A stretch of 14,207 nucleotides of DNA from a virus (lineage: Duplodnaviria > Heunggongvirae > Uroviricota > Caudoviricetes): IMG/VR virus record IMGVR_UViG_3300005397_000053; one strand, 5' to 3'. The translations under genes were made by a program, and so were the position numbers. The stretch's first letter is position 1. Every line of letters starts with the position of its first letter. This document shows, piece by piece, positions 406 through 1,530 of this stretch. The notes under the pieces were generated by a model. It was not told where the DNA came from, did not search any database, and worked only from the letters and a program-made list of their open reading frames with translations.

Positions 406-620
406 CTAAAGTTGGATACTTAAGAAATGCTTCATAATTCAGTAAGGCATTAGCATAATGGAAATAAAAGTGCAGAGACTATCTCTATGGATGATTAATA
501 CTGTCTTTTTATTGTCACCCATAAATAATCACCAGACTAATACTATCAACTTGATATTTGAAATGTGATCACTTGACTTTTGATACGTTATTTTATAACG
601 GTTAACATATTTATAAAAAC

Positions 621-643
621 AACGGCCGTGCCACACGTCCGTT
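621..643 (-). terminator. Terminator-like hairpin, copy 1 of a roughly 50 bp repeated element (612-662)
   Basis: Stem aacggccgtg / cacgtccgtt (10 bp, one mismatch), followed on the minus strand by a T-rich run (reverse complement of ttataaaaac at 611-620). About 80 percent identical to the element at 1476-1528. Confidence 0.5.
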
Positions 644-1010
644 TCAATACTTAACGCACATGTATTTTGGTTTAGTCATCATCCGGTTATATGTATTTTA
701 GCCAGGAACAGGTTAAATCATTCCTATATAACTCAAAAATTGAAACCTTATTCTCATGTCATGCTTATATTCATTATTATCGTTATATAAAAAGGCAACC
801 ATAATGTTTAGCAAATTGGCACAAAGTAGCATAAAGGCTATGTTTTAATTACAGGATGTTCAGTCATTTGAATGTATAACATTATAGCTAAACAAATCTA
901 AAACGAAGTCAATAATTTATTGCTTTCACAAAATCTCATTTTGTTTAACATCCATTGAGATTCCTTGCTTTAAATTTTATTTTATATAAGCCATCATTTT
1001 AATTAATTTA

Positions 1011-1027
1011 TTTTTTTGAGGGGGGGG
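1011..1027. repeat. Homopolymer tract T7-GA-G8 upstream of iraM
   Basis: Read directly: tttttttgagggggggg, about 80 bp upstream of the iraM ATG. Confidence 0.9.
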
Positions 1028-1104
1028 TAATATACTCATATGCAAAATCAAGAAATAAACATCCTAATGAACCATATTAAATACCGTGGGATAAGACATA
1101 ACAA

Positions 1105-1428
1105 ATGAAGTGGATAGTAATTGACACGGTAATTCAACCTACATGTGGTATATCTTTTTCAGCCATATGGGGTAATATGAAAATGATCATCTGGTATCAA
1201 TCTACTATATTTCTCCCTCCTGGCAGTATATTTACACCGGTTAAGTCTGGTATTATCCTTAAGGATAAAGAATATCCTATTACTATTTATCACATCGCAC
1301 CATTCAACAAGGATTTATGGAGTTTACTCAAAAGCAGTCAAGAGTGTCCTCCAGGAGAAAGCAAAATAACAAATAAATGTTTACATAATAGTTGCATTAT
1401 AAAAATATGCCCATATGGGCTCAAGTAA
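1105..1428 (+). CDS. iraM: Anti-adaptor protein IraM (inhibits RssB and stabilises RpoS)
   Basis: 107 aa ORF beginning [17 protein letters not shown]-rich, located between ycgX and the icd fragment as in K-12. Length and context match IraM; identity is by recollection, not alignment. Confidence 0.75.
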
Positions 1429-1484
1429 TGGGCTTCATATAAATATGCTCGATATGCTATTAATAATATCCACATAAATAAAAC

Positions 1485-1507
1485 AACGGGCGTGTTATAC
1501 GCCCGTT
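1485..1507 (-). terminator. Intrinsic terminator of icd (copy 2 of the repeated element)
   Basis: Perfect 9 bp stem aacgggcgt / acgcccgtt with loop gttat. On the minus strand it is followed by gttttatttat and lies immediately after the icd' stop codon (complement of tta at 1531-1533). Confidence 0.75.
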
Positions 1508-1530
1508 TCAATATTTAACACATGGAGAGA

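Follow-up and report, generated by a model that had tools for sequence, protein, structure and literature searches.

The intrinsic terminator of icd is present twice around iraM in Escherichia coli K-12, as a direct repeat of ~48 nt with its copies 864 bp apart; the locus occurs in three allelic configurations, its terminator is also carried by phages, and iraM has phage relatives. The locus is best read as a further example of a known process, the erosion of an icd-integrated prophage that leaves an accessory gene between attachment-type repeats, and the duplicated terminator together with iraM is probably the decayed relic of such an integration at icd. The duplication itself had been claimed in an earlier note on this DNA and is confirmed here.

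The window, that is, the whole stretch of 14,207 nt that was analysed, corresponds from position 1 to ~1.7 kb to the ycgX-ymgL-ymgK-iraM-icdC interval of E. coli K-12, beyond which the right-hand end of cryptic e14 begins (mcrA, pinE). Its orientation is opposite to MG1655 numbering, window position w being genome position 1213107-(w-1). The two terminator copies are called T1 (distal) and T2 (beside icd), and the features are as follows.

1–405, plus strand: ycgX (DUF1398), the left-flank context, of a phage-related family (phrog_413, E = 1.5e-41).
458–568, plus strand: ymgL, a small ORF and the last gene before T1, also found beside the single terminator in empty-site genomes.
615–663, no strand assigned: T1, the distal copy of the icd terminator unit, with A-tract, hairpin (621–643) and tail to ACATGT.
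664–1479, plus strand: the AT-rich cassette between the repeats, 816 bp, 30.1% GC, present or absent as a unit.
804–848, plus strand: ymgK, a 14-codon ORF in the cassette, known from annotation.
1105–1428, plus strand: iraM, encoding a PmrD-family anti-adaptor (phrog_4407, E = 4e-51).
1480–1525, minus strand: T2, the intrinsic terminator that comes right after the displaced icd 3' end, with hairpin 1485–1507 and minus-strand T-tract 1476–1484.
1531–1695, minus strand: icdC, the chromosomal icd 3' end displaced by e14, with its stop codon at 1531–1533; e14 starts at 1696.

T2 is convergent with iraM. The GC content of the cassette compares with 45.6% for the window. The earlier note had described an AT-rich segment of ~0.8 kb holding iraM alone: its size and composition stand (816 bp, 30% GC), whereas the annotated ymgK also lies inside; its figure of ~440 bp between T1 and iraM agrees with the positions 663 and 1105.

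The longest direct repeat in window positions 1–2000 pairs 616–658 with 1480–1522 (43 nt, 84% identical without gaps, spacing 864), and when one 1-nt indel is allowed the match grows to ~615–663 for T1 and ~1480–1525 for T2, a unit of ~48 nt. It is made up of a left A-tract, the hairpin CAACGG(G/C)CGTG..A.ACG.CCGTT and a 20-nt right tail TCAATA(C/T)TTAAC(G)CACATG, and its right end lies 5 nt before the icd stop codon. Since the identity reaches into the A-tract and the tail, more than a generic stem is repeated; flanking identity on both sides of the hairpin, as the earlier note had proposed, makes T1 a true paralogous copy. A degenerate hairpin pattern has exactly two matches in the 14.2-kb window, with 0.00 expected from 200 shuffles, and lenient BLAST of the cassette against icd plus terminator returns this element alone (E = 3.6e-8 for K-12 and 2.5e-10 for an O145 strain). 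The element occurs in 1–4 places per genome, and all copies that were read are located either at icd or at an attachment end of icd type. A dispersed repeat family of the REP/BIME kind was ruled out by these 1–4 places per genome and by the lack of an Rfam match, a search of window 1–3000 at E <= 1 having given sub-threshold noise only; a third, older copy was looked for between bluR and ycgX and none was found.

T2 starts ~5 nt past the icdC stop codon and is terminator-like in the minus-strand scan, and its identification as the icd terminator, by hairpin and minus-strand T-tract, holds. On the minus strand its GC-rich stem of 9 bp (9–10 bp) is followed by the U-rich tail GTTTTATTTA, and its folding energy is -23.3 kcal/mol on the minus strand and -21.0 kcal/mol on the plus strand (z = -4.2 and -5.0). 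The GC-rich stem-loop of an intrinsic terminator is thus found in T2, and a minus-strand U-rich tract follows both T2 and T1, the latter being listed as terminator-like in the same scan with the tail TGTTTTTATA; the plus-strand tail of the repeat is TTTCAATA(C/T)TT, a weak U-tract. T1 of K-12 carries a C.T stem mismatch and folds no better than its shuffles (z ~0), while in O145-type T1 all 10 bp of the stem are paired (plus strand: -23.4 kcal/mol, z = -3.5).

As for present function, T2 probably ends both convergent transcripts, namely that of icd (or mcrA-icdC read-through in K-12) and that of iraM; its A-tract/T-tract symmetry appears to be that of a bidirectional terminator with a weak plus-strand tail. 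The icd terminator resembles bidirectional intrinsic terminators in its perfect GC-rich hairpin, which is flanked by an A-tract and, on the opposite side, a T-rich tail, and in its place between convergent units, here ymgL/iraM and icd, but its plus-strand U-tract is weak. T1 could at most end ycgX-ymgL transcripts or minus-strand read-through. No mapped transcript 3' ends at this locus were found in the Term-seq data sets searched.

At least 80% of window 400–1720 is found in 3861 of the 5426 complete E. coli genomes, the full cassette in 3883, and both terminator copies together with iraM in ~3860. In 1037 of the 5426, all with B2-type flanks, ymgL is joined to icd through a single terminator, which is the empty site that the earlier note had predicted for genomes lacking iraM; two copies without iraM, the arrangement it had named as contrary evidence, are found in none of the five empty-site loci read. 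Empty junctions read base by base (CFT073, ST131, ECO21 and Z1323HEC0477) consist of the T1 left flank, a T2-type hairpin and the T2 right flank, so the empty allele is the occupied allele minus exactly one repeat period, that is, the cassette plus one repeat. The ycgX flanks of empty sites are 98–99.8% identical to one another and 96–97% identical to those of occupied alleles. A synthetic empty junction of O145 type (non-B2) had no match above 96.6%, and the full-length matches listed (best 25) are all B2-type; among these 25, no recent deletion between T1 and T2 inside iraM-positive lineages was seen. The common B2-type flank and the lack of a non-B2 empty junction point to a polymorphism that arose from one old event and not from recurrent deletion. 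The empty site accounts for the absence of iraM from B2 strains. Insertion sequences have altered the locus in single genomes: in E. coli ECMA0423, IS1 has removed part of the cassette including iraM and abuts a point ~45 nt left of T2, and in 2012EL-2448, IS1 stands in place of ycgX through T1.

A third configuration is present in 19 complete E. coli genomes (e.g., N96), in which a 6.3-kb island lies between a T1 copy with one hairpin change (T1') and the icd terminator. The order is ycgX, a ymgL-like stretch, T1', an icd relic, the island, e14-type arm repeats, a perfect terminator and icd; the island contains a ymgB-like gene, an iraM-like gene (72% amino acid identity), trkG (phrog_1916), an IS relic and a 455-aa ORF, and no integrase was found beside the e14-type arm repeats and the terminator. 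The K-12 homologue of this trkG belongs to the Rac prophage. After T1', at conserved spacing, stands the exact 13-mer ACATATTCTTGAT, which corresponds to the last four icd codons with the stop codon (TTA) directly preceding. Because an icd stop and codons follow T1', the unit duplicated at T1 would once have reached into icd and comprised the icd 3' end plus terminator; insertion into the terminator region with target duplication, as the earlier note had it, does not fit this divergent allele. Identity between the N96-type allele and K-12 is 97–98% across bluR and the initial 200 nt of ycgX and 52–85% from there through ymgL and T1; a recombination breakpoint lies inside ycgX at about window position 200. 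From this drop in identity, the long allele would be an imported, long-diverged version of the same block. It shows that iraM can sit in a larger, apparently prophage-like island, with T1 at one border and an attachment end of phage type at the other. The three states (empty, 0.8 kb and 6.3 kb) are usable as a phylogenetic marker and offer a natural system for how accessory genes outlive their prophage.

Copies of the icd end are carried by phages of two types. Phage 21 and ~30 related lambdoid phages have the last 53 icd codons plus the terminator directly beside arm-type sites and int, and their homology to K-12 ends at window position 1478, the left edge of T2; a second, e14-like type with TTTTGATAA arm repeats likewise carries the icd 3' end with the terminator or a variant of it. 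The e14-borne terminator on the functional K-12 icd (MG1655 1196380–1196480) is the variant CAACGGGAGCGTTACGCTCCCGTT, whose outer stem is unchanged and whose inner stem is different yet fully paired. In K-12 the e14 copy, T2 and T1 thus form a series of three terminator-family copies, all in one orientation, that spans 16 kb. All phage-borne copies found accompany the icd 3' end, and since phages that use the icd site bring their own icd 3' end and terminator, each integration at icd makes two terminator copies in direct orientation. The icd 3' end can be regarded as a layered record of successive integrations.

The two copies at the iraM locus have fared differently. The hairpin CAACGGGCGTGTTATACGCCCGTT downstream of icd is identical in all E. 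coli lineages looked at, in E. albertii, in three Citrobacter species and in icd-integrating phages, and E. ruysiae differs by one stem base. The stem of T1 is perfect in O145, EC488 and ST38, where the only differences from T2 are in the loop (GCCAT vs GTTAT), at one C/T position and in one indel; K-12 T1 has three further lineage-specific changes including the C.T stem mismatch, which most other lineages lack; and Shigella flexneri T1 has one further change that weakens the stem, with an intermediate form of T1 in a provirus contig. Across five lineages 6 of 48 sites of T1 vary, the same density as in nearby non-coding DNA (12–16%). The T1-type loop (GCCAT) was found in no phage of IMG/VR and occurs only beside ymgL. 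By these comparisons T1 appears as a decaying, drifting copy and T2 as the constrained one. It is conceivable, if on the whole unlikely, that T1 is instead kept for a function, as an insulator or terminator against ycgX-ymgL read-through into PhoP-controlled iraM, as a minus-strand stop or as an RNA 3' end; the perfect 10-bp stem of O145-type alleles, the terminator-like minus strand ending in TGTTTTTATA and the position of T1 47 nt past the ymgL stop codon would suit such a role, but the density of variable sites equals that of neighbouring non-coding DNA, K-12 has a broken stem and Shigella a weakened one, the U-tract on the plus strand is a poor one, the long allele no longer has the minus-strand T-tract, and retention would be explained while origin would not.

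The insert has phage connections through its genes. IraM belongs to phrog_4407 and trkG of the long allele to phrog_1916; homologues of IraM with 54–73% identity are accessory genes of lambdoid and Stx prophages, where they are located between Q/stx and nanS-p and read from the other strand than the late genes; this orientation is the one expected for iraM in a prophage integrated at icd. The YcgX homologue of E. albertii is a prophage accessory gene between Rz and nu1. The homology of the phage-borne iraM genes is confined to the coding sequence, their flanks containing neither a terminator copy nor non-coding homology, and the non-coding DNA of the cassette (660–1104) had no match in 50,697 phage records. 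The whole cassette (664–1479), searched against plasmids and all E. coli genomes, gave full matches only as a unit with iraM and elsewhere matches to the iraM coding sequence only; the "plasmid" matches look like pieces of chromosome. Small ORFs in window 600–1110 had no PHROG matches, and neither an integrase nor arm-type sites nor phage structural genes were found in the K-12-type cassette. It has been reported that iraM lies on the e14 prophage (PMC4045071); this placement is contradicted here, as iraM lies outside e14, which ends at icdC, and also adjoins intact icd in genomes in which no prophage interrupts icd. iraM, a regulator of RpoS stability, would then derive not from e14 but from an insertion at the same icd attachment site that is older and has been eroded almost completely. 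No paper describing the duplicated icd terminator was found.

On the prophage-relic model, a prophage with its own icd 3' end and terminator would have integrated at icd and so created two direct copies; the phage-borne copy would have stayed joined to icd as T2, and the displaced native copy would have come to lie at the far prophage end beside ymgL as T1. The prophage would then have decayed, in most E. coli leaving the 816-bp AT-rich remnant with iraM and ymgK between the copies; the displaced icd coding stub beside T1 would have been deleted, and K-12 would later have gained e14 at the same site, giving three terminator-family copies in a row. The order of these events and which copy is native are what we infer. 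Judged as attL and attR, the repeats are direct and the unoccupied site has a single copy; icd coding sequence is absent beside T1 in the K-12-type allele, while the stop and four codons follow T1' in the long allele; and left of T2 in the window there is no integrase with arm sites of the kind that stands beside a phage-borne copy. Against the relic model, two deletions are needed, with ends within about 5–15 nt of the terminator edges, and in the phages examined the iraM homologues are not near the attachment site. A decayed icd stub was sought beside T1 in the K-12 and O145 alleles by lenient blastn and blastx, and nothing beyond the terminator appeared; the alignment hints at a possible deletion of 10–13 nt between two ACATGT repeats, which is not significant alone. 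The 6.3-kb allele could alternatively be a K-12-like cassette plus an e14-type prophage minus T2 and icdC, in which case the origin of T1 would be informed only by the 13-mer.

The direction of the event in B2 may be read in two ways. A Citrobacter sp. has a YcgX orthologue beside icd with no iraM (one such orthologue was found), and no IraM of >90% identity was returned outside E. coli and Shigella; these two results favour the empty site as the ancestral state. Given the divergent long allele, it is just as possible that the B2 ancestor underwent a deletion between T1 and T2, so that the B2 empty site may as well be derived as ancestral. On its sequence divergence, T1 with an iraM-type insert would either long predate the E. 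coli radiation or have been brought in by recombination via ycgX and icd. A scan of the genome collection for native outgroup sites gave mostly phage-borne copies in E. albertii, E. ruysiae and Citrobacter.

The closest known system is the icd duplication made by e14 and phage 21, which leaves the pseudogene icdC. There as here, direct repeats of the icd end flank foreign DNA, the copy joined to icd stays functional and the displaced one decays, the phage-borne unit includes the terminator, site and orientation match, and the cargo has phage relatives. In contrast, the K-12-type allele repeats the terminator only (~48 nt) and not a 165-bp coding stub, and its insert of merely 0.8 kb is without integrase, arm sites or phage structural genes. 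Like phage morons and decayed prophage islets, iraM is AT-rich, stands alone and has relatives in lambdoid and Stx prophages; unlike them, it is chromosomal here, has no adjacent phage genes and is flanked by non-coding DNA unique to the locus. Duplications of tRNA-gene and other 3' ends at genomic islands are similar in that the element carries a replacement target end and leaves direct repeats, but the target here is the terminator region of a protein gene and the island has shrunk to one gene. The understanding of terminators and of prophage integration is unchanged by the finding.

With no integrase or arm sites, unique non-coding DNA, no stub, the positions of the deletion ends and no phage with the T1 loop, the weak points of the relic model make an element that integrates at the terminator a serious rival. 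On that reading, a small integrative element whose attachment homology was confined to the terminator would have recombined with it, attL being T1 and attR T2, and later have lost its integrase; this we regard as rather improbable. The homology between T1 and T2 in the K-12-type allele stops 5 nt before the icd stop and at the A-tract, the insertion/deletion is the cassette plus one repeat, and the A-tract edge is a repeated entry point of IS200C, which marks the site as prone to recombination, all as such an element would predict; however, neither an integrase nor such an element was found, the icd codons after T1' indicate that the duplicated unit reached into icd, and the phage-borne terminator copies found all come with the icd 3' end. 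A further reading, in which the icd terminator hairpin and A-tract form a recombination hotspot (by hairpin-directed or terminator-specific capture) that the iraM cassette entered directly as IS200C does, with T1 kept in most lineages as an insulator between PhoP-controlled iraM and ycgX-ymgL transcription, is given little credence.

Insertion with target duplication, which the earlier note had offered, suits the locus poorly. A transposon would be expected to leave a target-site duplication of 2–14 bp, inverted repeats and a transposase; the repeat is of ~48 nt, no terminal inverted repeats exist at the cassette ends (664/1479), and no transposase ORF is found in the cassette. A de novo duplication of the resident terminator, by staggered breaks, repair synthesis or a split tandem duplication, would amount to a long target-site duplication and is very improbable. 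Direct repeats do flank the insertion, the empty site is single-copy, and the oldest-looking T1 (T1') is one hairpin base from the terminator, as expected of initially identical copies; on the other side, a duplication of at least 48 nt greatly exceeds the target duplications known from transposases, an ad hoc mechanism is called for although copies of the exact unit are carried by phages, and the lack of inverted repeats and of a transposase makes it a weak rival. Chance likeness of two generic GC-rich terminator hairpins has next to no probability, for although terminators have a general shape in common, the identity runs into both flanks (E = 3.6e-8 to 2.5e-10, zero shuffle matches) and the insertion/deletion seen in 1037 genomes spans one repeat period exactly, an empty-site structure that refutes it.

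Several further observations concern the terminator edge. IS200C has entered at one nucleotide of the terminator A-tract, ATAAA^AAACAACGG; in an ST38 genome it lies beside both T1 and T2, as a tandem pair at T2 (locus 1790–2505 and 3370–4795), and in a Citrobacter sp. a decayed IS200 stands beside a different icd terminator (locus 4900–5160). The hairpin edge is a recurrent IS200 target, and IS200C beside the terminator is an element separate from the cassette. A hairpin-bounded element of IS200/IS605 type was rejected as the source of the cassette: one hairpin is still there at the empty site, namely the ancestral terminator of icd that Citrobacter has too. The T2 hairpin of the ST38 genome is flipped (locus 4796–4819): it reads GTATAACAC in place of GTGTTATAC, with the loop region exactly reverse-complemented, and this looks like a template-switch inversion within the palindrome.

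Within the cassette, a homopolymer run T7-GA-G8 lies at window 1011–1027, ~80 nt upstream of the iraM start codon, and differs in length by lineage, with G8 in K-12 and G4–G5 or GGGAG elsewhere; a 22-codon ORF (1040–1108) follows just after it, and the run might affect expression through the iraM leader. A perfect 12-bp palindrome, GCCCATATGGGC (1409–1420), is located at the iraM 3' end (region 1394–1457), and three ATATGC repeats between iraM and T2 are unlike the arm repeats of phage 21 or e14. In Stx prophages an IraM homologue (70% identity, 111 aa) adjoins the Shiga toxin A and B genes, between stx and nanS-p on the opposite strand, and an RpoS-stabilising anti-adaptor may therefore travel with stx. 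At the other end of the locus, strains show mosaicism over the final 200 nt of icd (84–95% identity; window 1531–1700 and homologues) compared with 96–99% for the ycgX flank, and at least seven variants of the terminator tail match versions carried by phages; mosaicism and tail variants together would fit repeated replacement of the icd end by phage copies.
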